From Pseudomonadota bacterium (lineage in GTDB: Bacteria > Pseudomonadota > Gammaproteobacteria > JBCCGL01), in assembly GCA_039029275.1 (NCBI GenBank), contig JBCCGL010000010.1:61-64060 (forward strand): DNA of 64,000 nucleotides, read 5' to 3'. Below the pieces are notes generated by a model. It was given only the letters and a program-made list of their open reading frames with translations, ran no database searches and was not told the origin of the DNA. A program made the position numbers and the translations under genes. Shown here in pieces: positions 9,168 through 41,712 of this stretch. Within the stretch, counting starts at the first letter, position 1; the number at the start of each line of letters is the position of its first letter.

Positions 9168-9223
9168 GAATGGCTCCCGATTAATAATTCGGTAAACAAA
9201 TGATAGAAGATGACAACCCAGAC

Positions 9224-9502
9224 TTAGTTGCTATTCGCATCCGACAAAGGGTTCAGCTGACGATAGTAGCTCAACTCCCGACGAAACACATCGCGATCAA
9301 CCGGTGTTAGCGCATGCGACAAGACGCTGTCTTGAGGCCGACCGATCGACGAGCCCGGCAAGGCTTTCTTCCACGGCACGATGGTGATCGTTTTCGGTAG
9401 TTCGCGGTTGCCGATAATAGAGATACTGTCGAGCTCAAGCTCATCCTGTGCCGCGACCGAGGACGCCAGCAGCAGTCCCAGGGCAATTAGTCGATACTTC
9501 AT
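9224..9502 (-). CDS. small secreted hypothetical protein (92 aa) in TonB cluster
   Basis: Signal peptide 'LIALGLLLASSVAA'. 4-nt overlap with upstream TPR lipoprotein gene. Confidence 0.45.
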   Translation of the reverse strand: MKYRLIALGLLLASSVAAQDELELDSISIIGNRELPKTITIVPWKKALPGSSIGRPQDSVLSHALTPVDRDVFRRELSYYRQLNPLSDANSN

Positions 9503-19349: not shown

Positions 19350-19408
19350 TCGTATCTTGCGTTTTTCTACGTTGCCAATTCGTGGTTGTTCAATACAAGA
19401 TCGTTTCG

Positions 19409-20812
19409 CTAGCGCTTTGCGACTTCGATTGCACAACCCTGTTTATTTCTTTCGACCAGCGACTTTATTACTTTATCGTGTATGTTACCAAAACTGCCGT
19501 TTGACATGATCAATACATGATCGCCATTCTGCACGCTTGCCAGCACCGCTTTCGTGACAGAGTCGACGCTGGCCATCAAGCCTACGTGACCGTGTTGCAC
19601 ATGTCGTTCGATACCTTCCAGAGTTTCGGTGTCGGCGCAATGTACCAGAGTTTCGTCAGCCAAATCAAAGGTTTGCGAAAGTTCTCTGGAGTGAGTTCCC
19701 ATTCGCATTGTGTTTGATCGCACATCTACGACGGCGAGAATCCGCTCATTCACGCCAATCGTGCGACGCAATGCAACAATTGTGGCTTTAATTGCGGTGG
19801 GATGATGGGCGAAATCGTCGTAGATCGTGATGCCATCGATCTTCGCGCGCACTTCGAGCCGACGCTTAACACCGGCGAACGATGTCAGCGCTGCCGCAGC
19901 ATGCTCGGGTGTGACGCCGACGTGGCGGGCCGCTGCTATTGCAGCCAGCGCGTTCATGGCGTTGTGCGCGCCTACCATCGACCACAGCAGATCGACAGGC
20001 GCGTCGCTGTGCGGCGGGACTATCCTGGCGGATACGGGGTCAGACCTATCAAGCTGCCATGCGTTCGCCGCAGACCCTGCGTTTGAACCAAAACGTTCTA
20101 TGTCTGACCAGCAGCCCATTGCCAGAACCGACTCTAAATTCGCATCATCGCCATTGACAAGCAGACGGCCGCTGGCGGGTACCGTGCGAATCAGGTGATG
20201 AAACTGGCGTTTAATATCGCTGAGTGAGTCAAAAATATCGGCATGATCGAACTCGAGATTGTTCAGTATCAAGGTGCGCGGGTGGTAGTGGACAAACTTC
20301 GAGCGCTTGTCGAAAAACGCGGTGTCGTATTCATCTGCCTCAACAACGAAAAACGGCGCCTTTCCCAAGCGCGCCGAAATGCCAAAGTTATGCGCAATCC
20401 CGCCGATCAAGAACCCCGGTTGCAACCCGGCGTGTTCGAGGATCCACGCGAGGATACTACTGGTTGTCGTCTTCCCGTGCGTGCCAGCGACTGCAAGTAC
20501 CCAGCGATCCCGAAGAGCATTTTCCAGCAGCCACTGCGGTCCGGACGTGTAGGCGATTCCCATTTCCAGAATTGATTCGACTTCGACGTTACCGCGCGAC
20601 AGCGCATTGCCAATCACGACACAGTCGACATCCTCGGGAATGTTTTCTGCTCTGTACCCCTCGTTCAGTTCGATCCCCGCTTCCTGCAATTGGGTACTCA
20701 TGGGAGGGTAGATACCCGCGTCAGAGCCGCTCACATCGTGACCGAGTTCACGCGCAAGCAGCGCAATGCCACCCATAAACGTGCCGCAAATTCCAACGAT
20801 ATGCAGTTTCAC
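19409..20812 (-). CDS. mpl: UDP-N-acetylmuramate:L-alanyl-gamma-D-glutamyl-meso-DAP ligase (murein peptide ligase)
   Basis: 'MKLHIVGICGTFMGGIALLARELGHDVSGSD' Mur-ligase N-terminus, 467 aa. Confidence 0.9.
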   Translation of the reverse strand: MKLHIVGICGTFMGGIALLARELGHDVSGSDAGIYPPMSTQLQEAGIELNEGYRAENIPEDVDCVVIGNALSRGNVEVESILEMGIAYTSGPQWLLENALRDRWVLAVAGTHGKTTTSSILAWILEHAGLQPGFLIGGIAHNFGISARLGKAPFFVVEADEYDTAFFDKRSKFVHYHPRTLILNNLEFDHADIFDSLSDIKRQFHHLIRTVPASGRLLVNGDDANLESVLAMGCWSDIERFGSNAGSAANAWQLDRSDPVSARIVPPHSDAPVDLLWSMVGAHNAMNALAAIAAARHVGVTPEHAAAALTSFAGVKRRLEVRAKIDGITIYDDFAHHPTAIKATIVALRRTIGVNERILAVVDVRSNTMRMGTHSRELSQTFDLADETLVHCADTETLEGIERHVQHGHVGLMASVDSVTKAVLASVQNGDHVLIMSNGSFGNIHDKVIKSLVERNKQGCAIEVAKR

Positions 20813-21397
20813 TTACAGCGCATCCACTGGGCTGACTTGCGGGGCAGGGAAGATCATCGCAGCAATCGTGATGACACTGACCACGTAGACCATGGACATC
20901 ATTATTCCAACCGACAGGCGCGTATCAAAACCGTGGCGCAAGATATGGCCCATCACGATGATGCTCCATACGTGCAAGCTGAGCATCGCCACCTGACCCG
21001 ACACGCCAAGCTCGGCGATCGATTCCAGACTTTCAAGACCTTGATAGATGGGCCATGACACCAGAGAAATAACCAATCCGGCACCGCACAGTGCGGTGTA
21101 CAACTGCAGAAAGCGCTCGCGATGGCCGCTCATGGAAAGCCCAATCAACAATGCCAACGCGAGTATTACTTGTTCAAGAATGGATCGCTGCAGCGCCTCG
21201 ACAGCACCGAGTAAAGACGAGAATATCGAAACGTTGGCGACAATTACGGCGATCAGAGTCAGCACCGCGGTGACGGGCGTGCCGGTTACGTCTTGAGGCT
21301 TGGCCCGCAATAAAAACAACCGGAAAAAATAAGTGAGCAGAAAAAAACACAGGCGCATGGGGCATTCCGTCCACCGACAAAGCGGCATGGCTGGCAT
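20813..21397 (-). CDS. hypothetical polytopic inner-membrane protein (start probably at internal Met near 21358)
   Basis: About 5 predicted TM helices. Stop abuts mpl start by 1 nt. Confidence 0.5.
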   Translation of the reverse strand: MPAMPLCRWTECPMRLCFFLLTYFFRLFLLRAKPQDVTGTPVTAVLTLIAVIVANVSIFSSLLGAVEALQRSILEQVILALALLIGLSMSGHRERFLQLYTALCGAGLVISLVSWPIYQGLESLESIAELGVSGQVAMLSLHVWSIIVMGHILRHGFDTRLSVGIMMSMVYVVSVITIAAMIFPAPQVSPVDAL

Positions 21398-25624: not shown

Positions 25625-26434
25625 CTAGTCGAGATAAAGAGGCGTAAACGCACGCTCGCCGTTGATGCGGTATCGATCGATAAGCGATTGCGCGGGCTCG
25701 GATTTGAGCCAATCGACCAGCGCACCGGCTGCGGCAGTATTCACATGCGGGTGCCGCGTTGGACTGACGGCGATTACCGAATACGGGTTATACAGAGGCG
25801 GACTCGAAGAATACAGCGGTGCCAGCCCGCTGCCCTCGCGCAGCTTGAGCCAGGTCCCGCGATCGGTCACCGTGTAAGCCCGCAATTCGCCGGCAATCTG
25901 TAACACCTTGCCCATGCCCTGCCCCGCTTCGCGGTACCAGACACCCTGCGGTGAAAGATCGGCTTCGCGCCAGATCGACAACTCACGCATATGCGTGCCG
26001 GAGTCATCGCCGCGCGAAATAAACAGGCTTTGCGCGCTGTGCAGTCGACGAAACGCATCAACTGCGGACGCCGCACCGTCAAGCTTCGCCGGATCATGCT
26101 CGGGCCCGACGATTAAAAAGTAGTTGAACATAAACGGTTCGCGCGACACGCCAAAGCCCGAATCGACAAATGCTTCCTCGGCGGTTTTGGCGTGCACCAT
26201 CACAACATCAACGTCGCCGTTTTCACCCAGCCTGAGCGCCTTGCCAGTGCCGACAGAAATAATTTGCACATCGACATCGTGCGCAGCCTCAAATTCCGGA
26301 AGGATCGCACCCAGCAAGCCGGAATTCTCTGTGCTGGTGGTTGTAGCGAGCCGCAGCACCGATTGCGCAGAGGTGCTTAAGGGAGATGCGAGCAAAAACA
26401 GCGAGGATATCGTGGCGGCGATTAACTTCAGCAT
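25625..26434 (-). CDS. periplasmic tungstate/oxyanion-binding protein (TupA/WtpA-like PBP), orphan
   Basis: Signal peptide. 'LRLATTTSTENSGLLGAILPEFE...VQIISVGTGKALRLGENGDVDVVMVHAKTAEEAFVDSGFG' closely follows the TupA family pattern. No permease or ATPase adjacent. Confidence 0.65.
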   Translation of the reverse strand: MLKLIAATISSLFLLASPLSTSAQSVLRLATTTSTENSGLLGAILPEFEAAHDVDVQIISVGTGKALRLGENGDVDVVMVHAKTAEEAFVDSGFGVSREPFMFNYFLIVGPEHDPAKLDGAASAVDAFRRLHSAQSLFISRGDDSGTHMRELSIWREADLSPQGVWYREAGQGMGKVLQIAGELRAYTVTDRGTWLKLREGSGLAPLYSSSPPLYNPYSVIAVSPTRHPHVNTAAAGALVDWLKSEPAQSLIDRYRINGERAFTPLYLD

Positions 26435-28831: not shown

Positions 28832-29599
28832 ATGACCATCAGTAAAACCAAGGCGTTTACGGCTCATCTCGCTATAAGCGTGTTGATTTTTGCTGTACTC
28901 AGCTGGTTTTTGCTGTTTCGCTGGTTCCCGGGTGAGTTGTTTTTTATCGACGGTGGCTGGCAAGGCATGCGCATTATCGCCGCCGTTGACCTGGTCCTTG
29001 GCCCGATGCTGACGCTTATTTTCTATAAGCCGGGTAAACCCAAAGTTGTTTTCGATCTCGCCATCATTGCCGTGGTGCAAACCTGCGCCCTGACCTATGG
29101 AGTGTGGTCGGCGCATCAGCAAAGCACCGTTGCACTCGCGTTTGTCGAAGGCCGCTTTGTTACCGTGGCGCATTCAGCGCTCGTGGCCGGTGATACCGAG
29201 ATGCGTGCAGACGGCAAACCAACACAATCGCTCGACGCATTCGACCAGCACCGTCCGGTTCAGGTGTTCGTCGAACCGCCGCCCCCAGATGAATACGGTC
29301 AATATCTTGCTGACGTGCTCAACGGCAAGTCCGAACTGCATGAGCGCAGCCATCGCTTTCGCGCACTCGGTGAACATTTGGGCGACATAAACGCGTACAA
29401 GCAGACCCTGCCATTGCTCGAACAACAAAACCCGGTGCTGCACGATGTGTTCGTTGAGCACCTTTGGGAATCTGGATTCAACGCAGACGAGATCGACATT
29501 TACAAACTTAAAGCGCGCTATGGCGTCGGGCTGGTCATCGTGCCTCACGCAAGTCAGTCGATTGAGGACATTTTCGTGATTGAGGAGTCCGTGCAATAA
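28832..29599 (+). CDS. hypothetical membrane protein
   Basis: Three N-terminal TM helices, then a soluble domain. No family recognised. Confidence 0.45.
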   Translation: MTISKTKAFTAHLAISVLIFAVLSWFLLFRWFPGELFFIDGGWQGMRIIAAVDLVLGPMLTLIFYKPGKPKVVFDLAIIAVVQTCALTYGVWSAHQQSTVALAFVEGRFVTVAHSALVAGDTEMRADGKPTQSLDAFDQHRPVQVFVEPPPPDEYGQYLADVLNGKSELHERSHRFRALGEHLGDINAYKQTLPLLEQQNPVLHDVFVEHLWESGFNADEIDIYKLKARYGVGLVIVPHASQSIEDIFVIEESVQ

Positions 29600-29608
29600 T
29601 CGCGAATA

Positions 29609-30319
29609 ATGGAATACACCGTATTCGTCGTTATCGCTTTCTTCAGCTCGTTAGTATCTGCAATTTTCGGCATTGGCACTGCCTTACTGCTTCTGGGCGT
29701 TGGCGCATTTGTATTGCCGGTTAAAGAAACGATTGCGCTTTCGACTGTGCTTTTCCTCGCAGCCGGACTGACCAAAACCTCACTTTTTCGCACCTCGATA
29801 GACTGGAAGCTGGCTGCTGTAGTCACGCTGGCAAGTCTGCCGACCGCCTACATCGGTGCTGCGATGGTGGACACCATGCCGGTCGATTGGCTTAGGCGGT
29901 TGCTGGGATTAAGCATCGTCGCGTACCTGCTGATTACCACTGTTTTCAGCCATGTAACAATCAAGTTGAATCAGTTCGGGTTGATTGCGGGTTCCGGCGT
30001 TTACGGTTTTGTCTCTGGCTTGCTTGGCAGCGGCAACGTGATCAAAGCGCTTTTGTTTCGGGAACTCGCAATGGGAAAGGAATCCTTTGTCGGGATTATG
30101 GCCGCCACATCGATTCTGACAAACGTTGCTAAACTCAACGCATATGCGAACGATGGACTGTTACATGAGCGCCATCTTGTCGTTGGCGGCGCGCTGGTTG
30201 CGTGCGCGGTAGTGAGCGCCTATATAGGTCGCAATATTATGCAAAAGATACCGCTCAACCGTTTTCGACACGGCGTTTCGCTAGTGCTTTTTTGCGCAGC
30301 ACTCAACCTGCTGTGGTGA
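29609..30319 (+). CDS. TauE/SafE family sulfite/anion exporter-like membrane protein
   Basis: 236 aa, duplicated 4-TM repeat with Gly-rich motifs 'GIGTALLLLGVGAF'. Confidence 0.75.
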   Translation: MEYTVFVVIAFFSSLVSAIFGIGTALLLLGVGAFVLPVKETIALSTVLFLAAGLTKTSLFRTSIDWKLAAVVTLASLPTAYIGAAMVDTMPVDWLRRLLGLSIVAYLLITTVFSHVTIKLNQFGLIAGSGVYGFVSGLLGSGNVIKALLFRELAMGKESFVGIMAATSILTNVAKLNAYANDGLLHERHLVVGGALVACAVVSAYIGRNIMQKIPLNRFRHGVSLVLFCAALNLLW

Positions 30320-30508
30320 GATTGCAGACGTTCCCGAGATAAGTTGGTTTCAGACATTTGTGAATTCCACGGAACTAATTTGCGAGCATCGAATCATAAA
30401 GCGCAAATCCTTAGGCATTGCAACGCAAAGCAGGGTTTGTAAAACTCGGTTATCCGCCGCCGAATTAAACGGCGGAAAAACATTAAACCTCATTGGGAGT
30501 CCTTAGAT

Positions 30509-30766
30509 ATGAGCAAACGTAACACCGCCGCAGCCGCGGCACTTGCAAGTCTGGTTGCTGTTGGCATGAGCACTGTCGCGACCAACGCAGCAGCAGCCGA
30601 GATGGAAAAATGCTACGGCGTTGTTAAAGCAGGCAATAATGACTGCCAGACTGCAACAAGCGCATGCGCAGGCACCTCAACCGCCGACGGCCAGAAAGAC
30701 GCGTGGTTGCTGGTACCCAAAGGGATGTGTGCACGCCTGGTTGGCGGTAACACCGAAGCAGGTTAA
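30509..30766 (+). CDS. bufA: DUF2282 bufferin-type RiPP precursor peptide (Sec signal + 4-Cys core)
   Basis: 85 aa, signal peptide, core 'EKCYGVVKAGNNDCQTATSACAG...KGMCARLVGG' with 4 Cys. Stop overlaps bufB start (TAATGATG). Confidence 0.8.
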   Translation: MSKRNTAAAAALASLVAVGMSTVATNAAAAEMEKCYGVVKAGNNDCQTATSACAGTSTADGQKDAWLLVPKGMCARLVGGNTEAG

Positions 30767-31641
30767 TGATGCAAAGCGGCTCATCAGCCACGTTTGTTTC
30801 GACGCCAATCCCGGCTGTTGCCGGGATTGGACTTCGCGGGCCGCACTATCAAGCGATTGTCGATCAAAAACCAGACGTAGGGTGGCTCGAGGCGCACACG
30901 GAAAATTACTTTGGTGACGGCGGCGCACCTTTGTTTTATCTCGAAAAATGTCGAGAGAATTATCCCTTGAGCTTTCACGGCGTCGGCCTGTCTCTGGGAA
31001 GCGTTGACCCGATAAATCTCGACCATCTAGCTAAGACCAAATCGTTGATCCAGCGTTTCCAACCCGGCTTGATTTCGGAGCACCTGAGCTGGGGCTCGAT
31101 TGATGGCGAGCATTTCAACGACCTTTTACCCATGCCTTACACTGAGGAGGCACTCGCACATTTTTGCGAGCGCGTCGATCAAACGCAGGAATTTTTGGGT
31201 TGCCAAATGCTGGTCGAAAACCCATCCAGCTATCTCAGCTTTTCGCACTCGACGATCCCGGAATGGGAATTTTTCGTTGAGATAGCCAAGCGTACCGGAT
31301 GCAGACTGGTAGTTGACGTAAACAATATTTTCGTCAGCGCGCAAAACCATAACTTTGATGCGGATGCCTACATCGATTTCATACCGCCGGATTTGGTCGG
31401 CGAAATCCATCTCGCTGGGCACGCCATCAACACCCACGACACAGTTAAGATTTTAATCGACGACCATGGCTCGGTCGTAAGCGATTCAGTCTGGACACTA
31501 TTTGTACGCGCAATTGGTCGCTTCGGTGCGAAACCGTCGCTGGTCGAGTGGGACAGCAATATACCGCCACTTGAAGAATTACTCGCAGAAGCACAAACCG
31601 CGCAAGGGATTCTGGATGAGTGTCGTGCCCTCGTTGCCTGA
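30766..31641 (+). CDS. bufB: DUF692/MNIO (multinuclear non-haem iron oxidase) peptide-modifying enzyme
   Basis: 291 aa. 'AVAGIGLRGPHY...WLEAHTENYF...SFHGVGLSLGS' matches the UPF0276/DUF692 TIM-barrel family. Confidence 0.85.
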   Translation: MMQSGSSATFVSTPIPAVAGIGLRGPHYQAIVDQKPDVGWLEAHTENYFGDGGAPLFYLEKCRENYPLSFHGVGLSLGSVDPINLDHLAKTKSLIQRFQPGLISEHLSWGSIDGEHFNDLLPMPYTEEALAHFCERVDQTQEFLGCQMLVENPSSYLSFSHSTIPEWEFFVEIAKRTGCRLVVDVNNIFVSAQNHNFDADAYIDFIPPDLVGEIHLAGHAINTHDTVKILIDDHGSVVSDSVWTLFVRAIGRFGAKPSLVEWDSNIPPLEELLAEAQTAQGILDECRALVA

Positions 31642-32407
31642 ACTGCAGCGTGCATTCTCTAATGACTTGCATGGTGAATCGGCATCGCAAACGGAACGGA
31701 TGATCAAGCCGGGAAAGTTTTCCTCCGAGCGACTCATTCAGGTTTACCGCAATAACTTTCAAATCAGTTTGACGACAGCGCTGCGTGATATTTACCCGAC
31801 CATTGACACGCTGGTTGGTGAAGGTTTTTTTAATTATTTGGCCAACGCGTATATTTCTGCACACCCCTCAAGGCACGGAAACCTGCATGAATTCGGGTCA
31901 TCACTGACCGAATTTTTGGGTCGTTTCGAGGCGGCTTCCAGCCTCCCCTACTTATCCGACGTCGCATCTGTCGACTGGGCAAGTCACCGCGCTTTCCATG
32001 CCGCGGACACGCAAGCAGTGTCACAGAAAAAGCTAGCCCAGATAGCGCCAACAGATTATCCCGCACTTAAATTCAAGTTAAGCGAATCCACGACCCTGAT
32101 TTCATCCGAATTCCCCACATTTTCAATCTGGCAGTTTGCGCAACGCGATAATCCAAATACCGAACCACCCGCAGTAGATGGCGGCGGGGAGTGCGTGCTT
32201 GTGCATCGTCCGCGTCTTGAATCCGAGGTCTTTCAAATCACGGGTACTGAATACCGCCTACTATTTGAATTGAAAAATGAACAAACGCTCGGTGCCGCAG
32301 TCGAACGGGCGGTCACCGAAGAAAGCAATAACATGGCTTTTGATTTGAACAACTCTCTGCAACGTTTTTTCGCGGCAGGCGTTGTTTCAGATGTCTGGCT
32401 AGATTGA
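31616..32407 (+). CDS. bufC: DUF2063 family MNIO partner protein
   Basis: Begins 'MSVVPSLPELQRAFSNDL...'. N-terminal DUF2063-like region. Overlaps the bufB 3' end by 26 nt. Start chosen at the internal ATG. Confidence 0.7.
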   Translation: MSVVPSLPELQRAFSNDLHGESASQTERMIKPGKFSSERLIQVYRNNFQISLTTALRDIYPTIDTLVGEGFFNYLANAYISAHPSRHGNLHEFGSSLTEFLGRFEAASSLPYLSDVASVDWASHRAFHAADTQAVSQKKLAQIAPTDYPALKFKLSESTTLISSEFPTFSIWQFAQRDNPNTEPPAVDGGGECVLVHRPRLESEVFQITGTEYRLLFELKNEQTLGAAVERAVTEESNNMAFDLNNSLQRFFAAGVVSDVWLD

Positions 32408-32495
32408 TTCGGGACCTGGCCAGGGAACGCGAGAAATAATCTGGCAACGTATCACTCCAACACCAAATGAAGACAACGAGAATGAGGAAAAAACA

Positions 32496-32948
32496 ATGGC
32501 GATAGTCACGCTCCTGAGAAATGTACTGAAGCCTTCCATCGGATGGTTGGCGCTGGCAACTCCGCTGATCGATCTGGTTCTGCGTCTGTATGTAGCGAAC
32601 ATATTCTGGAAATCGGGACAAACCAAAATTGCGAATATGGATCAGACAGTACAACTGTTTGAATACGTATATCAGGTACCGGTTTTGCCACCTGCGTTTG
32701 CGGCTTATCTTGCGACGTACGCGGAATTGATTTTCCCTATACTGCTGGTTTTAGGCCTCGCTACACGTTTCGCTGCGCTGTCGCTGACAATCCTGAATAT
32801 CGTTGCGGTTATTTCATTTCCAGACTTGAACGATGCCGGACTGCAACAACACATCGTCTGGGGAATCATGCTGCTTGTCACCTTGTTGCACGGTCCAGGC
32901 AAGCTCGCAGTGGACCACTGGATTCACAAGAAATACTGGGACGAGTAG
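32496..32948 (+). CDS. DoxX family membrane protein
   Basis: 150 aa, 4 TM helices, 'LRLYVANIFWKSG' DoxX signature. Confidence 0.8.
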   Translation: MAIVTLLRNVLKPSIGWLALATPLIDLVLRLYVANIFWKSGQTKIANMDQTVQLFEYVYQVPVLPPAFAAYLATYAELIFPILLVLGLATRFAALSLTILNIVAVISFPDLNDAGLQQHIVWGIMLLVTLLHGPGKLAVDHWIHKKYWDE

Positions 32949-32961
32949 ATTATTGGTTGAG

Positions 32962-32986
32962 CGGCGGGGGCGATTTGCGCCCGCCG
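32962..32986. terminator. imperfect GC hairpin between convergent DoxX and GDPD genes
   Basis: 'gcggcgggggcg-attt-gcgcccgccg' (about 9-bp stem with one bulge), followed by 'ttgttcaaa'. Confidence 0.35.
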
Positions 32987-32990
32987 TTGT

Positions 32991-33743
32991 TCAAACACCC
33001 TGAAGGCGTTCAGGAAAATCGCTAATCACGCATGCGACGCCCCACTCGAGCAATTCCTCAGCGCGATCTCGTTTATTCACCGTATACACCAGGACTGGAT
33101 AACCTTGCGCGTGTATTGCATCGACCTGGTGCTTTTGTAGCGGTTCGTCTTCAGCGTGAAGTGATACGGCACCAAATTCCTGCAATTTTCGTTGCCAGTT
33201 GTCAGGAACGTCTTCTACTAACCAGCCGCGCGAAAACTCGCCTGCCACTTCAGCGATTCTCTGCATTACTGATTCGTTAAAGCTCGACAACAACAGCGGC
33301 ATATTTCGCGGCCAGTGTTTTCGCAAAATATCAATGGTGTGGTCGACCGTTTCTTTTTCATTTCCGGTCTGCGATTTAATTTCCACGTTCACTCCCATGC
33401 CAAACTCGTCAAGCAGAGGAATAAGCTCACGAAACAAGGGAATTTTTTCTCCCAGGAACTGACCGGAAAAATGTGAGCCGGCGTCGAGCGTTTCAAGCAC
33501 CGAATAGTGGGTTGTTCGCAGCGCACCGCTCCCATTGGTGCACCGATCAAGCGTGTAGTCATGAAACACCACAATCTCGCCACTGCCGGCCAGGTTCACA
33601 TCAAGTTCGACAAATCTGACACCTAATTCCGCCGCACGCATGAATGACGCGATGGTATTTTCCGGTGCGGTACCTTTCGCACCGCGATGACCAGCCACAC
33701 GCGGCAGAGCCGAAAAATCAAAAGCCGGGAATTCGTTTAGCAA
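32991..33743 (-). CDS. glycerophosphodiester phosphodiesterase family protein
   Basis: 'HRGAKGTAPENT...VELDVNL...VVFHD' GDPD catalytic motifs. 250 aa. Confidence 0.85.
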   Translation of the reverse strand: MLNEFPAFDFSALPRVAGHRGAKGTAPENTIASFMRAAELGVRFVELDVNLAGSGEIVVFHDYTLDRCTNGSGALRTTHYSVLETLDAGSHFSGQFLGEKIPLFRELIPLLDEFGMGVNVEIKSQTGNEKETVDHTIDILRKHWPRNMPLLLSSFNESVMQRIAEVAGEFSRGWLVEDVPDNWQRKLQEFGAVSLHAEDEPLQKHQVDAIHAQGYPVLVYTVNKRDRAEELLEWGVACVISDFPERLQGV

Positions 33744-33758
33744 AACAGGAGATAAAAA

Positions 33759-34988
33759 CTAATACCAGAACGATATGAACGCGCGTAATACAGTGGCGTT
33801 GAAATCGTAAAGTGGTTCGCTGCCGGTTTCCGCCGGGCTGCTCGCATTCGTTGTTCCACGAATGTCTCGAAAATCGTCATACTGAAAATCAATAAAGTCG
33901 ATGTGCACGTCGACAGCACCGCGGTCGGCAAACCCCCAGCCGCTCTCGAGCAGGTCATAACTAAATCCGAATCCAATTGTATTTGAACTAAATGTGCTCA
34001 ACTCCTTGTCTCGCGCGAGAAAATTTTGCGCGTCCTGAAAAGGGAACAAATCGCTGTAGAAATCTGCTTTGGTTTGCTGATAGTGACGAAAACGAAAGTC
34101 CAAAACCCAGCCGCCATCCAATGGCACGAGGTAGCCAACGTCCACAGACTGTCCGGTTATATCCCAATCATCGTTAAAAAATCGATAGCCCAATTTTATC
34201 GATGCCCGGTGTTCCAGATAATAGAGTGATTGAACTCCCAACGCGTTACTGGTTCGCGTGTTTGGATAAGCTTCTTCCTGAAAGCTGTAACCGCGGGGAA
34301 CACTTGGATCGACAAACCGTACCTGTCGATAGGGATTATTCAAAAAGCCTTCGTCGGTTATAGATTCCAAATTGGCGTTAACGATCCAGTTCTTGGTCAA
34401 AATTTGCGAAAATCCTAAGCGAAAATTCTGCCGCTCAACTTCGCCAACCTTGGTGTCCAGTCTCGACACCTCATCATCGCCCTGCGCGTACCCAAGCGTG
34501 AGCGTGCTGAGTGCACCAAAAAACTCCTGCGTTATGCTGAAGTGTAAAGTGTTGGCGCTGAAGTCACTTTCTTCGCTATTGGTAAAACCACCACTTAACG
34601 TTGTGCGGTCATCGAGATAGTCAAATGAAACTGATTGCTCGGTGCGTTCTTCAGTATATGAACTCGCGGTTGTCACAACGTCTATCGACGCGCTGGTCAC
34701 CGAGTCAACGTAGTAATTGCCGCTGACTGAAACGTTGGATCCGAGTTGTTTACGCACCAGCACCGACGGGCCAGCGATAGTGACGCCGCCGCCATCATAG
34801 CTGTGATAGAGAACGTCGGCACGATCTTCGGGCAGAATCGCTGCAAATGCAGCAGATGTGGTCAGCGCAAACGCAAAGATCACGCTGAGTTGAATCACGC
34901 GTCTGAGAAAAGCGGCCACGCTCCGTAAAACCGGTTGCGCGCCCACACGTGCAAGGCGGTCATCAGCAAAGCGAGAGAGGTTACGCAA
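33759..34988 (-). CDS. DUF3570-like outer-membrane beta-barrel protein
   Basis: Signal peptide, 409 aa, amphipathic beta-strands, C-terminal 'RAFISFWY' aromatic terminus. Immediately downstream of a DUF4266 gene. Confidence 0.6.
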   Translation of the reverse strand: MRNLSRFADDRLARVGAQPVLRSVAAFLRRVIQLSVIFAFALTTSAAFAAILPEDRADVLYHSYDGGGVTIAGPSVLVRKQLGSNVSVSGNYYVDSVTSASIDVVTTASSYTEERTEQSVSFDYLDDRTTLSGGFTNSEESDFSANTLHFSITQEFFGALSTLTLGYAQGDDEVSRLDTKVGEVERQNFRLGFSQILTKNWIVNANLESITDEGFLNNPYRQVRFVDPSVPRGYSFQEEAYPNTRTSNALGVQSLYYLEHRASIKLGYRFFNDDWDITGQSVDVGYLVPLDGGWVLDFRFRHYQQTKADFYSDLFPFQDAQNFLARDKELSTFSSNTIGFGFSYDLLESGWGFADRGAVDVHIDFIDFQYDDFRDIRGTTNASSPAETGSEPLYDFNATVLRAFISFWY

Positions 34989-35048
34989 GATAGATGACCG
35001 TGATTAGTCGATTTTTAACACTGCAATAGCGCGTGAGCAAGTTTGTCG

Positions 35049-35267
35049 CTAATTGCACCCGCACCCACCGCCGGTTCCACCCTCAGCGCCACGTGCACCT
35101 TCGCGCGATTGATAAACGTGGTGCATATAGGAATCAGAAGCCGCAGCCCGAGAAAACTGCATGATCGGGTCAGAGAGGTTTGCGCGCTCATAAGGCGCAA
35201 CCCACGGCTCGAGCGAGCTGCACGCTCCGAGCGACAAAAACGATATTGCAAAAAGTAAGCGATGCAT
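35049..35267 (-). CDS. DUF4266 family small lipoprotein
   Basis: 72 aa, lipobox 'LSLGACSS', C-terminal 'GGTGGGCGCN' hallmark of DUF4266. Confidence 0.7.
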   Translation of the reverse strand: MHRLLFAISFLSLGACSSLEPWVAPYERANLSDPIMQFSRAAASDSYMHHVYQSREGARGAEGGTGGGCGCN

Positions 35268-35269
35268 AA

Positions 35270-35782
35270 CTATTCGCGCAGAAGTTTGCGCACTTGTTCC
35301 TCATATTTCACTTCGTAGCCTGGTTTGTATCCTTTATGCAGGTAACGCATATTGCCGTCACGATCGACCAGAATTGTCGTCGGCATTGCCTGTACCTGGT
35401 ACAGCTGACTCACCAGGTTTTGATCGTCGAATAAGATTGGAAACGTCACCGGTGTCGATTTCAGCATATTTTTCGCAGGCTTTGTATCCTGTTCAACGTT
35501 TACACCAAGAACCGTAAACCCCAGCGGTTTAAACTGTTGATACATTGCGTCCAATAGCGGCATTTCCTGTCGGCATGGACCGCACCACGATGCCCAGAAA
35601 TTGATCATGACAACCTGTCCACGCTGCTCCCCCAGGCGCAGGTTGATACCGTCATTACTCCGCAAACTAAAATCGGGAGACGGGCTATTCAGCTCAATAG
35701 CGTAAGCCGTTGACGTTAAACAAAGCACCAAAGCAATCAGGCCAAGGCACTTGCGGAAGTAATATGTGTAAACTTTGTGCAT
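35270..35782 (-). CDS. TlpA-like periplasmic thiol:disulfide oxidoreductase
   Basis: 'FWASWCGPCRQEMP' thioredoxin CxxC. Signal peptide from the internal Met (MHKVYTYYFRKCLGLIALVL). Start trimmed from 35878. Confidence 0.8.
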   Translation of the reverse strand: MHKVYTYYFRKCLGLIALVLCLTSTAYAIELNSPSPDFSLRSNDGINLRLGEQRGQVVMINFWASWCGPCRQEMPLLDAMYQQFKPLGFTVLGVNVEQDTKPAKNMLKSTPVTFPILFDDQNLVSQLYQVQAMPTTILVDRDGNMRYLHKGYKPGYEVKYEEQVRKLLRE

Positions 35783-35795
35783 GGTGTCTTCTCTT

Positions 35796-36449
35796 TTAAA
35801 AAAACAGCGACGCGCCGATCGAAAGTTCCAAATTGTGGGCCGTTTTACTCTCGCCCAGTAAATCGAGGTCAAATACATGATCTCGAAAATCGATGTGGAA
35901 GGCGAAAGAATCGTTAATCAAAAACCGATATCCGCTGCCGAAATTAAATGTAAACAGACTGTCACCGGCAAACTCGGTGCTTCCCGCCCCAGCGATTACG
36001 TAGACTGCTGTATTGAACGCATAGTCATCACCGATAAACGTTTCACCCAACAGGTTGTAACCGACAGAAATATTATAGAACGTGTAATCGCGTTGATCAT
36101 CGGTGAGGAGTTGAATGTCCCCGTTTAACCGCTCAAAGGTTGTTTCGTTCGCCGTGGACGTGCCGACCGTGCCTTCGACAAACAGATTTTCGGATAAATG
36201 ATATGCAATCTTTCCACCTGCTACGCTGCTAACGCCGAAATCTTCGATACTGATGAAGCCAGCGAATGCAGTCACCTCAAGATTTTCTGTATCGATTGCC
36301 GCCTCGTCGATTGTGCGTCTTTCAACACTCTGCTCGACCACCTGCCCGAGACTGTCCTCAGTATCAACTGAGCCATCGAGATCATGGTTATCAGCAAGCG
36401 CCGGGGCGGATAAGCCAAATACCAGAATGAACGCCAAATAAATACGCAT
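35796..36449 (-). CDS. small outer-membrane beta-barrel protein
   Basis: Signal peptide 'MRIYLAFILVFGLSAPALA', OmpA-like beta-barrel pattern, C-terminal 'IGASLFF'. Start overlaps the upstream stop (ATGA). Confidence 0.6.
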   Translation of the reverse strand: MRIYLAFILVFGLSAPALADNHDLDGSVDTEDSLGQVVEQSVERRTIDEAAIDTENLEVTAFAGFISIEDFGVSSVAGGKIAYHLSENLFVEGTVGTSTANETTFERLNGDIQLLTDDQRDYTFYNISVGYNLLGETFIGDDYAFNTAVYVIAGAGSTEFAGDSLFTFNFGSGYRFLINDSFAFHIDFRDHVFDLDLLGESKTAHNLELSIGASLFF

Positions 36450-37201
36450 TAGAAAAATACCGACACGCCGAGTTTCCACTGTTTAACCTTGTCGTTGTCG
36501 TCTCGACTCGTGATGATCGTCATTTGATCGTACTCAAAGCGCAACACAAATCGTTTACCAAGAAATCGTCTAACCCCGATACCCGCGCGCAAAAACTGGT
36601 CACTGCGATCTTCCGATGCGACGAGTGTTGCATCGGGCTCGGTTTGAATCACACCAGAACCCAGCGAGAAGAAAGGCGAGTAAGTCCATTCGGGAAACGG
36701 TTGATTGACGCCGTTAAAACTAAAAAAAATGCTGTTTGAAACGTCACCTAAAGCATGCGAAAGCGAAGCTTCCGCTGAGAGATTGGGGGTAAAGTGATAC
36801 GCGGCGTAGGTGGAGATTACAGCCGCACCGCCAAAATCGCCTCCCATCACACCGCCTTCCCAACGACGCTGATTGAAATCATCCTGTGTGAGTTCTGCTA
36901 GCTGCACGTCGCTGCCGTCGAGGTTGAGCGTGCGTGCAATTTGCTCCCTGGATACCCACCCTTCAACACCTCGCGCGGTTCGAATTTTGAACCAGTCATG
37001 TCGTCGCAAAAGAAGTTCGATCTCTTCACCTCGATCAACCACATGGAAAATCGGGAATGCACTGCCCGCACCGGTGTGCATCTCGACGAACGGATCGGCG
37101 ACCTGCACGCGCTGAAAGGATTCTTCTTCGGCGCCCACTGCTTGCGACAAAACCAGTAGCGCGCACAGCATGCCGCGCTGCAAACAACGCCAGATTCTCA
37201 C
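36449..37201 (-). CDS. SH3b-domain + beta-barrel envelope protein
   Basis: Signal peptide. SH3-like 'VEGWVSREQIARTL'. C-terminal barrel ending 'WKLGVSVFF'. Confidence 0.55.
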   Translation of the reverse strand: MRIWRCLQRGMLCALLVLSQAVGAEEESFQRVQVADPFVEMHTGAGSAFPIFHVVDRGEEIELLLRRHDWFKIRTARGVEGWVSREQIARTLNLDGSDVQLAELTQDDFNQRRWEGGVMGGDFGGAAVISTYAAYHFTPNLSAEASLSHALGDVSNSIFFSFNGVNQPFPEWTYSPFFSLGSGVIQTEPDATLVASEDRSDQFLRAGIGVRRFLGKRFVLRFEYDQMTIITSRDDNDKVKQWKLGVSVFF

Positions 37202-37385
37202 TGCTGTTGAGCCTGTTCATGGTTCATGGCTTATGAATAATGGCGACAGACAATTTCACTCTCTCGGGCCAGACAAATTTGAGCGCACTCAATACCTTAC
37301 ATTCTAGCGTGGTTTTGAGAAATCATTACCACTCATCACGTCGCTTCGTCTGCTGAATTGCGCGTTCTTCCGCTTTTACGCTCGA

Positions 37386-40007
37386 TTAATTGGTCGGCGC
37401 ATCAAACGGATTGTTGTAGTACTGCGCCCCTATATCGAGCCACTCGGCGATCAGGCGCAGTTCTTCTGGGTCCAATCGGCCGTCGTGCGTACCGCCGGGA
37501 TCGAACACAGAAAAGAAGTTACTTTGCGCGGCACCGGCCCCGGACATGGAAGGTCCAGGGGTCGCCGTCACGGGCTGAAGGATTGGGTTGCCGTCATCGT
37601 CCAAACCAACTTCGATAATCAAATCGATGAGTTCGGTGGTGTCGCCGTCACCATCGCTGTCGTCGACATCGATCACCTGCTGGATATCGGCAAAAAACAG
37701 TTCGCGGTACGCTTTAAAACGATCTTCGTTGTCGTTCGGGCCATCATCGGTCAGATCTAACTGCGCGTCCGGCACGCGAGGGGCGTTCGCGTTGGCGACA
37801 TCGACAATCGTGTGGCATGCGGTGCAGGTGTCGTCCGGATCCGGGCGAGTCAAATCCCACATCGGGTGAATATGCGTTTCGTAATGAATCACGACGCGAC
37901 AACGGTTGCTCCACTCGGGCTCGCAGTTAAGCGCAGGCGACGGTGTGGTTAATCCGGCGTAGCGTAAAAAGAGATCGGCATCTGGCGTGCGCACGAGAGG
38001 ATCGGTCCAAACGTCTGTGTATTCGATGTCTGCGGATGGCGTTGTCGCTGCGCAATCGACAGTGCAATCTGCGAACCCACTGTGACGCGCGCGGGTTTGC
38101 GCCATCGTTTCGCCTGCATCGGTCCACAGGCGTGCGACGGTGTTCGGAAACGGCTGACCGGTCAGCTGCGATCCCTGATTGATCGATACAAACTCGGCAC
38201 CCATTCGACCATGGCTTGCTTCGCTATCCGCAGTATGGCAACCATTGCAGGTGCGTGTTTCACCCGGTCGAAGTTGAATCCAATTCTGGTGTCGACCACC
38301 AATTCTTCTTCCGTTGGCATCCAGAACGCTCACCGTAAAAGAGACGTCTGCTGGCACTTTTACGCGAACAGATCCATCCGGCTCGATCGGCGCGTAGCCG
38401 ACTATCTCTCGCATAAGCTGATTAATCTGCGGGCCGAATGCACTGTTGTTGAAATCCTGCACGTCGTCATCCGGAATTGACACCGCTTTGGTTAAGCGTA
38501 AAAACCGCGCGGGACGCTCGGCTGCCAGCGTCTGCGCGGGGTCGGCTAAAACACCGATTCCGTTTGTAGATGTATCGACACCGTCAAAATCGTAGACACT
38601 GCGGATATCCAGAATCGCGACCCCTTCATCGGCTAGTGTGGCATCAAGATCAATACCGGGCAGTTTGTCAATTAAAGCCGTGGGCCGCGTGCGTGGGTGC
38701 GCGGCTACCACGTCGGTGTAAACAATGTTTTCCTCGGGCAACACAACCGGCAACTGCGTGTCCGATCCCACATCGCGAATCCAAACGCCATACAACGGAT
38801 TGGCTTCGACTACATCCTCGATTGCAAGATTGTCAGTTGTGCAAGCGACAATGACTTCGTCAACCAGCAAGCGGCACGGCGACCAACTCGTCATCATTCG
38901 GTCAGTGCCATCCCACAGCGGGTAAACACTGCTGAAGCGACCACCAGTGGACGGCTCATCATCAGTGCGCACGTTAACGCCCGCCGCATTTGTGTGAGCG
39001 CTTTGCACAACAGTGCCGATTCCTATTTGCTCAAATTCGTCAGTGTAGATTGCAGCGTCGATCAAGATTGGCGAGGCATCGTAACGATCATTCGTGAACG
39101 GTCGAATCAAACTTAAAACCTGCCCGCTCGGCGCTTCGCGCGCATCGGTAAATTGAACAGTCTCACCGTCGGTGCCGATCTCGTGGCTGTGGCGCCCATA
39201 AAACAGGGACAACTCGGTGCCATCCGGGCGAATTGTATAAAGGTGCATTGCGTTACGGGCACCCGCGGCGTCCCAACGCGTAAACAAAATGTACCCGGAA
39301 GATAAAACGGAGGGATCCAAGTCGTGACTTTGATTAAATGTGATTTGCCGAATTTCGGAACCGTCTTCGTTCATCACGTGCAAGGCGAAGGCCTCTTCAC
39401 GACGCTCTTCGTCCAGCGTTGTGAACTGGGGTTTGTTTTCATCCAGCAAAATTGCTCGGGCACGCTCCTGCCGCGTTGACGCAAAAACTATTCGACCATC
39501 AGGCAAATAATGAGGCGCGACATCCTGCCCTTCTTCCGCCACGATGTCGCTGGTAATTATCCTGCGCAGCGTTGCGCTGGAAATTTCGTATTCCCAAATA
39601 TTCCAAGTGGGTTGTTCATCTTCGTCGGCATTTTCAATTTCCGGCGCGCGCATTGCGAAAACAATTTTTTCGCCATCGTACGAAGCTTCAATGTCCTTTA
39701 CATCGTAAAGTTCGCCCGCTTCAAATACGCCAATGGTAATTGCACGCTCGTCTGCACTCGGTGATGCACGATCCCGAACGTACAATACGGCGCCGGGAAA
39801 AAAGTCGGCTGGGCTTCGGATGTCAGACGTTTCGCGTTCACCGTCGTCATCAAGCGGCAACGGACGTTTAACGTAAGCGAGTGGAAAATCCTGCAAGACC
39901 GGGTCGGGTTCCTGGCCACTACCGCCAATACTGCCACCACCGCACGCTTGTAAAAACATGACGGCAACAAGTGACAAAATTGTTATAAAACGCCGCAAAA
40001 AAATCAT
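37386..40007 (-). CDS. lipoprotein with TolB-like beta-propeller and C-terminal di-haem (2x CxxCH) domain
   Basis: Lipobox 'FLQACGGGS'. PD40-like propeller repeats (YLPDGRIVFAS, LYTIRPDGTE). Haem motifs 'TCNGCHT' and 'TCTACHT' near the C-terminus. 873 aa. Confidence 0.7.
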   Translation of the reverse strand: MIFLRRFITILSLVAVMFLQACGGGSIGGSGQEPDPVLQDFPLAYVKRPLPLDDDGERETSDIRSPADFFPGAVLYVRDRASPSADERAITIGVFEAGELYDVKDIEASYDGEKIVFAMRAPEIENADEDEQPTWNIWEYEISSATLRRIITSDIVAEEGQDVAPHYLPDGRIVFASTRQERARAILLDENKPQFTTLDEERREEAFALHVMNEDGSEIRQITFNQSHDLDPSVLSSGYILFTRWDAAGARNAMHLYTIRPDGTELSLFYGRHSHEIGTDGETVQFTDAREAPSGQVLSLIRPFTNDRYDASPILIDAAIYTDEFEQIGIGTVVQSAHTNAAGVNVRTDDEPSTGGRFSSVYPLWDGTDRMMTSWSPCRLLVDEVIVACTTDNLAIEDVVEANPLYGVWIRDVGSDTQLPVVLPEENIVYTDVVAAHPRTRPTALIDKLPGIDLDATLADEGVAILDIRSVYDFDGVDTSTNGIGVLADPAQTLAAERPARFLRLTKAVSIPDDDVQDFNNSAFGPQINQLMREIVGYAPIEPDGSVRVKVPADVSFTVSVLDANGRRIGGRHQNWIQLRPGETRTCNGCHTADSEASHGRMGAEFVSINQGSQLTGQPFPNTVARLWTDAGETMAQTRARHSGFADCTVDCAATTPSADIEYTDVWTDPLVRTPDADLFLRYAGLTTPSPALNCEPEWSNRCRVVIHYETHIHPMWDLTRPDPDDTCTACHTIVDVANANAPRVPDAQLDLTDDGPNDNEDRFKAYRELFFADIQQVIDVDDSDGDGDTTELIDLIIEVGLDDDGNPILQPVTATPGPSMSGAGAAQSNFFSVFDPGGTHDGRLDPEELRLIAEWLDIGAQYYNNPFDAPTN

Positions 40008-40458: not shown

Positions 40459-41712
40459 ATGTTGTTGAGAACTGAACTGAGTAAGTTCGCGATAGTGATC
40501 GCAACAGCATTCACTCTTATCATTACAAGCGTCACCGCTTCCGCCGGCTCGCGCGAAAAGGCTAAGCGCATTCATGATCGCCTGGCTGGCGTTCCTGCCA
40601 GTCAAGCAGTCCTTGATGACATGGTTAGCGACATCGACGGCATTGGCGATGGCAGCGGGACATTTGACGGAACACCCGCTGGAGCAGCCTACACGGCGAT
40701 GCAAAACAGCGCTTTTTACAACGTCACGCTGAAAAATTTTGCGATGCCCTGGACCAACCGTGAGTTCACAGTATTCGCCCCACTCAACGATTACGTCGCG
40801 ACCTTCATAGGCATGGTGCGCGATGACGTACCGATGAACCAGGCGCTCTCGGCGGACATTCTTTACATCGGCAGTGGCGGAAGTATCCCGGCCTATTCCA
40901 ACAGCGACAACGCGCATTACGAGGCGTTGGACGATCAAGGCGTTAACCTGCGTGACAACCTTATCCAGACAACGCAGTCTGCCGTTACCGGATTAGATTC
41001 ATCTGCCACCGCGGGTTTGATGACCACGCGCGCGGCGGCTAAATCGTTTTTTATCGCGGGTACAAACCGCGCGATGTTCCGCTTTACGATGCTTAATCAT
41101 CTGTGTCACGACATGGAACAGGTTGCCGACATTACCCGAGCGCCGGATCGCATCCGTCAGGATGTTTCGCGCAGTCCCGGGGGTGACAGCCGTATATTCC
41201 TGAACAACTGTATCGGTTGCCACAGCGGCATGGACGCGATGGCTCAGGCTTTTGCTTACTATGATTTCGCCTTCGACGCGGACAACGACCCAGAGGCCGA
41301 AAATGGCATCATGACCTACAACGGACCGGGCGTCGTTGACGAGGTTACCGGCACCCGCGTGCACTCCAAGTACTTTAACAATAACAGCAACTTTGACCCC
41401 GGCTTTGTCACACTTGACGATCGCTGGAGCAACTACTGGCGTGCGGGCCAGAACAAATTGCTCGGGTGGAGCGATCCATCTGAGGCAATGCGCCACGGCA
41501 ACGGCGCCAAATCGCTGGGTGAAGAACTCGCCAACAGCGAGGCATACGCGCGCTGTCAGGTTGAAAAAGTGTTTAGAGCGGTGTGTCTGCGTGATCCTGT
41601 TGACGCCGGCGACCGAGGTCAGATCGATACCATGATCGGTGACTTCATCACCAGCAATTACAACCTCAAGCAGCCGTTTGCCCAAAGTGCGCTGTTTTGC
41701 AGCGGGTCGTGA
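40459..41712 (+). CDS. secreted mono-haem (CxxCH) protein, 417 aa
   Basis: Signal peptide 'IATAFTLIITSVTASA'. Single 'NNCIGCHSGMD' haem-binding motif. No recognised enzymatic family. Confidence 0.65.
   Translation: MLLRTELSKFAIVIATAFTLIITSVTASAGSREKAKRIHDRLAGVPASQAVLDDMVSDIDGIGDGSGTFDGTPAGAAYTAMQNSAFYNVTLKNFAMPWTNREFTVFAPLNDYVATFIGMVRDDVPMNQALSADILYIGSGGSIPAYSNSDNAHYEALDDQGVNLRDNLIQTTQSAVTGLDSSATAGLMTTRAAAKSFFIAGTNRAMFRFTMLNHLCHDMEQVADITRAPDRIRQDVSRSPGGDSRIFLNNCIGCHSGMDAMAQAFAYYDFAFDADNDPEAENGIMTYNGPGVVDEVTGTRVHSKYFNNNSNFDPGFVTLDDRWSNYWRAGQNKLLGWSDPSEAMRHGNGAKSLGEELANSEAYARCQVEKVFRAVCLRDPVDAGDRGQIDTMIGDFITSNYNLKQPFAQSALFCSGS

Follow-up and report, generated by a model that had tools for sequence, protein, structure and literature searches.

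Within a 64,000-nucleotide stretch of contig JBCCGL010000010.1 (assembly GCA_039029275.1) from an uncultured Pseudomonadota bacterium, hereafter the window, four consecutive genes on the plus strand encode a peptide of the DUF2282 family, a multinuclear non-haem iron oxidase (MNIO, DUF692), a DUF2063 protein and a DoxX-family membrane protein (Table 1). The region is very probably an intact Buf1-type bufferin operon, bufA-bufB-bufC-bufD, which would direct the biosynthesis of a copper-binding peptide of the captophorin class, that is, of a peptide made by ribosomes and modified after translation (RiPP). The direct evidence lies in gene content, order and coupling, family membership, the iron-ligand residues, the conservation of four cysteines, the fold of the partner protein, synteny and purifying selection.

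A preliminary description of this DNA had proposed a bufferin-type operon in which the precursor gene is translationally coupled to the maturase gene. The coupling is borne out, as the stop and start codons at the bufA/bufB junction, GGTTAATGATG (GGT TAA TGATG; TAATG), overlap by 1 nt. For bufB the first ATG gives a protein of 291 residues, and the second ATG at 30769, which is used by gene callers, gives one of 290. The bufC gene begins 26 nt ahead of the bufB stop, so that the two overlap by 26 nt; in a mechanical list of open reading frames (ORFs) its start had been extended to a TTG at 31502. A spacer of 88 nt separates bufC from doxX. Shine-Dalgarno-like sequences stand at a suitable distance 5' of bufA (GGGAG, 30495-30499), bufC (AAGGGA) and doxX (GAGGAA). 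Horizontal acquisition was considered, but the operon, at 51.1% GC, differs little from the window as a whole, at 53.0%.

Table 1. Genes, gene parts, codons and predicted elements of the operon region, numbered from the first letter of the window.
Feature	Coordinates	Strand	Description
Putative extracytoplasmic function (ECF; sigma-E/AlgU-type) promoter	30371-30398	+	GGAACTA-N16-TCATA; conserved blocks and likeness to the consensus
Small GC-rich hairpin	30453-30476	+	UCCGCCG...CGGCGGA; predicted fold, in the predicted 5' untranslated region
bufA	30509-30766	+	85 aa; DUF2282/BufA1 precursor
bufA, signal-peptide part	30509-30598	+	residues 1-30: MSKRN, hydrophobic Ala/Leu/Val stretch, AAA; Sec-type, predicted
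bufA, core and stop codon	30599-30766	+	residues 31-85
bufA, CysI codon	30611-30613	+	
bufA, CysII codon	30644-30646	+	
bufA, CysIII codon	30665-30667	+	
bufA, CysIV codon	30728-30730	+	
bufB	30766-31641	+	291 aa; MNIO (DUF692) maturase
bufC	31616-32407	+	263 aa from ATG; DUF2063 partner, C-terminal alpha/beta domain, like a RiPP recognition element (RRE)
bufD (doxX)	32496-32948	+	150 aa; DoxX-family membrane protein
GC-rich stable hairpin	32958-32993		between the convergent doxX and GDPD genes

Precursor, maturase and partner proteins

The four family assignments made earlier all hold, with matches far beyond chance. The precursor matches Pfam PF10048 (DUF2282, named 'BufA1' in the newer Pfam release) over residues 32-81 with 81.8 bits, against a cut-off of 22.4 (E=3.4e-23). 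BufB matches PF05114 (MbnB_TglH_ChrH/MNIO) with 344.5 bits (E=4.7e-103), and BufC matches PF09836 (DUF2063, now 'HvfC_N') over residues 9-101 with 70.9 bits (E=1.1e-19). The DoxX protein, which has several hydrophobic stretches, matches PF07681 with 78.3 bits (E=7.1e-22) and scores 80.9 bits on the NCBIfam model HvfX, just over the cut-off of 80; it shares 82% identity with its orthologue in L002, one of the closest relatives discussed below.

BufA carries cysteines at residues 35, 46, 53 and 74 (spacing 11/7/21). All four occupy invariant columns in an alignment of 27 homologues, within the invariant pattern EKC.G..KAG.NDC.T....CAGT...D.Q.D....P.G.C, and the 394 homologues found in the protein database all carry PF10048. 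That the 85-residue ORF is a conserved gene, a point on which the preliminary description had made its reading depend, is thus indicated by the number of homologues, by the four invariant cysteines and by the purifying selection described below. The same description had treated the presence of 'only 4 Cys' as a peculiarity of this copy, which it is not. Proteins of the DUF2282 family run to 80-120 residues and combine a Sec signal peptide with four conserved cysteines (PMC11626156); a survey of the family names four cysteines as the hallmark of Buf1, and precursor, MNIO, DUF2063 protein and DoxX as the core of its cluster (PMC12452194); six or 12 cysteines mark Buf2 (PMC11626156, PMC12452194). 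BufA stays below the cut-off of the NCBIfam BufA2 model for 6- and 12-Cys precursors (NF050166; 31.3 bits, cut-off 60), and the EGKCG motif is absent from it. The copy is ordinary for its family, the four cysteines included, and the family is large and well catalogued.

The N-terminus of BufA has a basic n-region (K3, R4), hydrophobic residues 6-25 (Kyte-Doolittle value about 1.9 across residues 6-21) and an Ala-X-Ala motif (AAA) preceding Glu31, a signal-peptide-like layout that is common to all aligned homologues. From this layout we infer cleavage near Ala30/Glu31, with 28/29 or 29/30 as alternatives. The AlphaFold2 (AF2) model of the precursor places a helix at residues 6-25 and short strands at 32-36 and 66-70, and the two predicted strands agree loosely with the published two-stranded sheet. 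A sequence search of the PDB with BufA returned no relative.

BufB scores 376.8 bits on the NCBIfam equivalog MNIO_BufB ('MNIO family bufferin maturase'), above its cut-off of 310, and stays below the NCBIfam cut-offs of HvfB (231.4 vs 360), MbnB (TIGR04159; 60.6 vs 325), ApyH and ChrH. In MbnB the iron ligands are His54, His90, Glu133, Asp163, Asn166, His192, Asp208, His210 and Glu239 (PMC9060507). A HMMER alignment with 7tcr_A sets BufB residues H106, E151, D184, N187, H215, D232 and H234 at MbnB positions 90, 133, 163, 166, 192, 208 and 210. The other two were mapped indirectly: H71 to MbnB H54 through the first-site histidine in the 7dz9 and 3bww alignments, and E261 (SLVEWD) to MbnB E239 through a glutamate of 3bww (TLLERD). 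All nine MbnB-type ligand positions are therefore filled by the expected residues, and the concern that the 291-residue protein might lack the DUF692 iron ligands falls away.

Membership in this enzyme family leaves room for two products. MbnB-type MNIO enzymes make oxazolone-thioamide pairs (PMC9060507), and such methanobactin-like pairs, instead of 5-thiooxazoles, could in principle form at the modified cysteines of the window peptide. This was the structure first assigned to the product of the related HvfB (PMC11252979), and the two groups are isobaric and so not separable by mass alone. However, nuclear magnetic resonance of Caulobacter Buf1 favours the 5-thiooxazole (PMC11626156), oxazolin has since been reassigned as a 5-thiooxazole and the reassignment extended across the MNIO clade (PMC13097082), and the scores given above put window BufB over the line on the BufB model and far under it on MbnB. 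We consider oxazolone-thioamide pairs highly improbable here and retain the 5-thiooxazole.

The AF2 model of BufC, built with 17 homologues, is confident (predicted local distance difference test, pLDDT, 90.7; predicted template modelling score, pTM, 0.84) and shows a helical N-terminal domain followed by an alpha/beta C-terminal domain. Its best Foldseek match in the PDB is TglI, chain A of the TglHI holoenzyme (8hci_A/8hi7; E=2.5e-6), followed by NGO1945 (3dee, a DUF2063 structure; E=6.9e-4), and classical RRE proteins match it weakly (for example TbiB1, E=1.6). The model fits the published picture, in which BufC is a DUF2063 protein whose C-terminal domain is related to the RRE (PMC11626156).

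Older annotation would read these genes quite differently, with DUF2282 as an integral membrane protein, DUF2063 as a DNA-binding transcription regulator and no RiPP pathway at all. In an older Pfam release PF10048 still stands as a 'predicted integral membrane protein' and PF09836 as a 'putative DNA-binding domain', NCBI labels window BufC a 'DNA-binding domain-containing protein', and 3dee entered the PDB as a putative regulatory protein. Yet BufA has a single hydrophobic stretch, at its N-terminus and with an AXA motif after it, the arrangement of a cleavable signal peptide; the best match of the BufC model is TglI, the holoenzyme partner of an MNIO; and experiments on homologues found BufA to be a processed periplasmic peptide and BufC to be required for its modification (PMC11626156). 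The older reading is almost certainly wrong for this locus. The annotation deposited with the metagenome-assembled genome, 'membrane protein / DUF692 / DNA-binding protein / DoxX', should instead read bufA1-bufB-bufC-doxX, Buf1-type bufferin/captophorin cluster. The bufferin-type reading first proposed is upheld by the BufB equivalog match, the conserved ligands and cysteines and the TglI-like fold of BufC.

Conservation and erosion among relatives

Relatives of the MNIO gene (42-62% identity) were placed in their genomic context in 37 GTDB species-representative genomes of Alpha-, Beta- and Gammaproteobacteria. The order DUF2282-MNIO-DUF2063-DoxX is kept in 30 of the 37; among the seven exceptions three run into the end of a contig, and in two others the genes for the precursor and DoxX lie a few kb away. 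The closest relatives, found through the precursor, include four loci with the full operon (L002, L003, L004 and L045). Against the orthologous operon of L002, which comes from a 4.29-Mb genome, nonsynonymous and synonymous divergence (pN/pS) were 0.119/0.548 for bufA, 0.211/0.802 for bufB, 0.310/0.813 for bufC and 0.107/0.869 for bufD. All four genes are under purifying selection, with synonymous sites near saturation and the proteins conserved.

Other close relatives have lost parts of the cluster. L043 (5001-6900) has bufA, bufB and bufC and lacks doxX. In L042 (5001-6900) doxX is likewise absent, and bufB and bufC are spread across several frames, which could reflect genuine decay or an error of long-read assembly. 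L044 (5001-5510) has an intact bufA, followed by a 5' remnant of bufB alone (residues 6-79), before a convergent GDPD gene. Because the cluster is so varied and eroded among the closest relatives, it is a module that is mobile in evolution and dispensable, and the window copy is an intact one.

The erosion in L043, L042 and L044, the nearest syntenic relatives, could also be taken to mean that the window operon is itself a decaying, non-functional remnant, either transcriptionally silent or yielding an unmodified peptide. Against this, the window ORFs are intact and have ribosome-binding sites, every catalytic ligand position and every cysteine is present, pN/pS relative to L002 is low for all four genes, and the frameshifts of L042 may be assembly errors. 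We think it very unlikely that the window copy is a remnant. In the syntenic sister genomes the graded decay forms a natural series on which the continued function of orphan DUF2282 genes can be examined.

Upstream motif, RNA structures and neighbouring genes

Alignment of the regions upstream of bufA in close relatives, together with a pattern scan, brought out the motif GGAACTA-N16-TCATA. The scan pattern GGAACTW-N16-TCNYA has one match in the window on both strands together, where 0.04 would be expected. Matches occur in L044 (4858-4885, GGAACTA-N16-TCATA), L002 (7818-7845, GGAACTA-N16-TCTTA) and L045 (4874-4901, GGAACTT-N16-TCACA); in these and in the window the motif lies 127-183 nt ahead of bufA, and the spacer sequence has diverged each time. 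Among 45 loci the degenerate motif is confined to these sites upstream of bufA. It resembles the Escherichia coli sigma-E consensus GGAACTT-N16-TCAAA (PMC1312014, PMC1540707) and not the Caulobacter sigma-F site GTAACC-N16-CGAA (PMC3511200). It was not found in L042, L043 or 43 more distant metagenomic loci, so it would be specific to a lineage and not a feature of the family. Three of the distant loci have sigma-F-like sites instead, and certain alphaproteobacterial and metagenomic loci show a Caulobacter-type sigma-F site 5' of bufA. Since the pattern was defined post hoc from the same sequences that it describes, and is absent from L042, L043 and the distant loci, we regard a lineage-specific ECF-type promoter as plausible and not as proven. 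Transcription is predicted to start at about 30404-30406, some 105 nt 5' of bufA. The sigma-E-like motif would be the one small new point of this locus, and it suggests that bufferin operons are not uniformly regulated through SigF/NrsF.

Other candidate signals were set aside. The sigma-F motif GTAACC-N16-CGAA has 56 matches with up to two mismatches in the window, against 55.4 expected, and the match at 30439-30464 was rejected as chance because its -35 part is not conserved in relatives. A consensus scan found no sigma-70 promoter 5' of bufA. A scan for canonical intrinsic terminators found none after doxX, and the three 'terminators' that it placed inside coding sequence are at chance level.

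Taken with the losses described above, the motif allows a more speculative history. In a narrow gammaproteobacterial-like lineage, control of the Buf1 operon may have shifted from the metal-responsive SigF/NrsF system known in Caulobacter to an envelope-stress promoter of the sigma-E/AlgU type, and the lineage may also be shedding the cluster stepwise, doxX first and bufB and bufC later, with an intact and still conserved orphan bufA left in at least one relative, L044. We hold this scenario to be unlikely; if true, the orphan gene would imply either modification in trans or a role for the unmodified four-Cys peptide.

Two hairpins flank the genes. The upstream one, some 35-55 nt 5' of the bufA start, has a conserved CGAAT in or beside its loop and is common to L002 and L044, with a compensatory change from CCGCC/GGCGG to CCACC/GGTGG in L044; its folding z-score is not significant (-0.2), and it has no Rfam match. 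The downstream hairpin (-27.5 kcal/mol; z=-3.2 on the plus strand and -2.6 on the minus strand), with a weak U-tract, was missed by the terminator scan and is probably a transcript-end structure. At E<=1 the Rfam search of 29500-33800 was empty, and at gathering scores so was that of the entire window, which yielded neither a tRNA or rRNA nor a riboswitch.

In relatives the buf operon adjoins phosphate-regulon genes, namely phoB-phoR-pstS-pstC and PhoU_div-PHO4, with a GDPD gene on the opposite side (L002 5536-7541, L042 2792-4791, L043 2700-4734, L045 529-4654 and L044 1924-3863), and Pho-box-like direct repeats can be seen by eye beside the divergent phoB in L002, L042 and L043. Pho regulation of the window operon was considered because relatives carry phoBR-pst, PHO4/PhoU_div and GDPD genes around it, and was rejected: there is no Pho box nearby, and the two weak matches elsewhere compare with 4.3 expected. 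A PstS-like PBP_like_2 gene at 25625-26434 is the only phosphate-type gene of that kind in the window.

Pfam was run on essentially all ORFs of at least 140 residues in the window, and the genes around the operon proved mostly housekeeping or unrelated. Upstream lie genes for an argD-like aminotransferase, ornithine carbamoyltransferase, a TfpZ-like protein and a TauE permease; downstream is a convergent GDPD phosphodiesterase. The latter begins a minus-strand block (32991-40007) that is syntenic in L001, L042, L043 and L044 and continues with a DUF3570 protein (409 residues), a DUF4266 protein of 72 residues with a lipoprotein-like LGAC motif and the C-terminus GGGCGCN, a TlpA/redoxin-like thioredoxin and two outer membrane beta-barrel-like proteins, one with an SH3_3 domain; the block ends with an 873-residue protein that has an HZS_alpha middle domain.

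Elsewhere in the window, 486-1862 encodes a FecR-domain protein and 1977-2444 an Rsd/AlgQ anti-sigma-70 homologue. The minus-strand genes of 6492-15684 encode an ExbB-ExbD-ExbD module, then proteins rich in tetratricopeptide repeats (206 and 964 residues), and proteins of 695, 198 and 336 residues with no Pfam match at E<=1e-5; the whole looks like an Agg/Bat- or Tol-like envelope cluster. An ApbE flavin transferase is encoded at 15855-16883, and a 469-residue protein with a Ser/Thr protein kinase domain and a C-terminal cyclic-nucleotide-binding domain at 18027-19436 on the minus strand. No Pfam family was assigned at a threshold of 1e-3 to the ORFs at 40459-41712 (plus strand, 417 residues) and 20813-21397 (minus strand, 194 residues), or at 1e-5 to those at 44316-45959 (plus strand, 547 residues) and 47732-49051 (minus strand, 439 residues). 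The 417-residue ORF precedes a gene for an 856-residue Laminin_G_3 protein.

Copper, the proposed pathway and known systems

The four-gene 'gig' operons of Cupriavidus, Legionella and Caulobacter have been shown to be RiPP clusters (PMC11626156). In Buf1 of Caulobacter, conversion to 5-thiooxazoles takes 4 Da each from CysII and CysIII, and CysI and CysIV form a disulfide, for a total of -10 Da; BufB and BufC are both required for this and together suffice, and DoxX is dispensable (PMC11626156). Cu(I) as well as Cu(II) binds to the Caulobacter peptide, which gives protection from copper (PMC11626156), and by analogy the window peptide would bind copper and act in copper stress.

Several observations weigh against our interpretation. 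Among the window ORFs covered by the Pfam run there is no copper-homeostasis gene of the CopA, CueO or Cus type, and no ECF sigma factor (Sigma70_r2/r4) or NrsF/DUF1109 protein, so that the link to copper runs through homology only. The promoter pattern is post hoc and missing from more distant relatives, and the erosion of the cluster in some of the closest relatives shows it to be dispensable in the lineage. BufC fails HvfC, the sole NCBIfam partner model available (33.5 bits; cut-off 142), and searches of the PDB by sequence, with BufC alone or with a 30-sequence profile, gave nothing meaningful, so its connection to TglI and NGO1945 is made through fold comparison. The AF2 model of BufA has a pLDDT of 60, and below 50 in the segment with CysII and CysIII, a confidence too low for the Cys-Cys geometry, the fold or the disulfide to be read from it.

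The same cluster, with the same enzymology, might then serve a purpose other than copper buffering, such as handling another metal or resisting envelope, oxidative or chlorine stress, and its expression could depend on a sigma factor for envelope stress in general. The missing copper genes and regulator, and an upstream motif closer to the sigma-E/AlgU consensus (PMC1312014) than to the sigma-F site of Caulobacter (PMC3511200), would suit such a role. In Caulobacter, chromium and cadmium too induce the homologous operon (PMC3511200), SigF/NrsF systems of other bacteria are described as responding to hypochlorite (PMC4436054), and roles with other metals and stresses are put forward in the family survey itself (PMC12452194). 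On the other hand, the sole direct functional data on Buf1-type peptides are of copper binding and protection (PMC11626156), the metal-binding residues and their motif are fully conserved in window BufA, and the promoter is a predicted one. A non-copper role is in our judgement improbable. Of the earlier suggestion that the operon is related to copper stress, what stands is the support from homologues; the window itself adds no copper gene or regulator to it.

With copper buffering as the preferred role, the chemistry, export route, disulfide, copper binding and physiological role can be drawn from characterized homologues, namely Caulobacter Buf1, to give the following pathway. Transcription probably starts at the sigma-E-like promoter, and BufA would be made as an 85-residue precursor. 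In the cytoplasm BufB, together with BufC, which would recognize the precursor, would carry out four-electron oxidations that convert the central cysteines Cys46 (context NDC-Q) and Cys53 (SAC-A) into 5-thiooxazole heterocycles. The modified precursor would be exported by the Sec route, its signal peptide cut near Ala30/Glu31, and the outer cysteines joined as a Cys35-Cys74 disulfide. This would give a small folded protein, some 55 residues long, that may bind Cu(I)/Cu(II) in the periplasm through its thiooxazoles and so buffer excess metal. DoxX would be an accessory membrane protein, probably not needed for the modification. The preliminary description had expected thiooxazoles, and a shift of -4 Da, at each cysteine. 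This agrees with CysII and CysIII of characterized Buf1 and fails for CysI and CysIV, which form the disulfide; since only two cysteines are converted there and the other two are linked, the expected total is -10 Da, and the predicted monoisotopic mass of the modified mature peptide is 5566.48 Da for residues 31-85, which is 10.08 Da below the 5576.56 Da of the unmodified core; cleavage after residue 29 or 28 would instead give 5637.52 or 5708.55 Da.

The class had also been presented as one recognized only recently, but it is no longer obscure: Pfam names PF10048 'BufA1', NCBIfam includes an equivalog model for BufB, and the catalogued precursors of the wider class exceed 21,000 (PMC13097082). 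The 5-thiooxazole chemistry has been generalized to the whole MNIO clade, the class has been renamed captophorins, and DUF2282 is one of three large groups among the 21,424 precursors counted (PMC13097082). To a family with thousands of catalogued clusters the window adds one more uncultured Pseudomonadota member.

Among the better-known MNIO systems, MbnABC and TglHI (pearlin) share with the window the MNIO fold, the same set of iron ligands and dependence on a partner, and the BufC model superposes on TglI. They differ in that their precursors have no Sec signal peptide, their chemistry is oxazolone-thioamide formation or excision of the Cys beta-carbon, and their export and ecological roles are different; BufB fails the MbnB model. 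The oxazolin/Hvf system of Haemophilus influenzae and the fontiphorin/gonophorin systems are alike in having an MNIO, a DUF2063-type partner and a DoxX-type HvfX, and their precursors have a signal peptide, as is predicted for BufA (PMC11252979, PMC13097082), and their products are Cu-binding 5-thiooxazole peptides (PMC11252979, PMC13097082). Unlike window BufA, however, their precursors carry repeated EGKCG motifs, and the window proteins fail the HvfB and HvfC cut-offs. Buf2 (BUF_6/12Cys; Cu_RiPP_BufA2) is alike in its MNIO and DUF2063 pair and its proposed copper-buffering role, and has a Cys precursor exported by Sec, as is predicted for BufA, but it has six or 12 conserved cysteines and usually no DoxX, whereas the window peptide has four cysteines and fails the BufA2 model.

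The closest counterparts are bufA1B1C1D1 of Caulobacter vibrioides (CCNA_03363-03366 = CC3254-CC3257) and the 'gig' operons of Cupriavidus metallidurans and Legionella pneumophila, which have the same four families in the same order. Differences from Caulobacter are few. The core peptide has about 55 residues in the window and 68 in Caulobacter, and the residue after CysII is Gln instead of Lys. The 64-kb window has no sigF-nrsF pair among its ORFs of at least 140 residues, unlike Caulobacter Buf1, and its upstream motif is sigma-E-like and not sigma-F-like; an adjacent ECF sigma factor and NrsF are, however, features of a subset of Buf1 clusters and do not define them, just as DoxX is frequent and not obligatory. 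The products, with 85, 291, 263 and 150 residues, are close in size to those of CC3254-CC3257 (93, 280, 254 and 150; PMC3511200), the cysteine spacing is 11/7/21 against 11/8/21 in Caulobacter BufA1 (PMC11626156), and window BufA and Caulobacter Buf1 share the contexts NDC and S/A-C-A around the two cysteines that are modified in Caulobacter.

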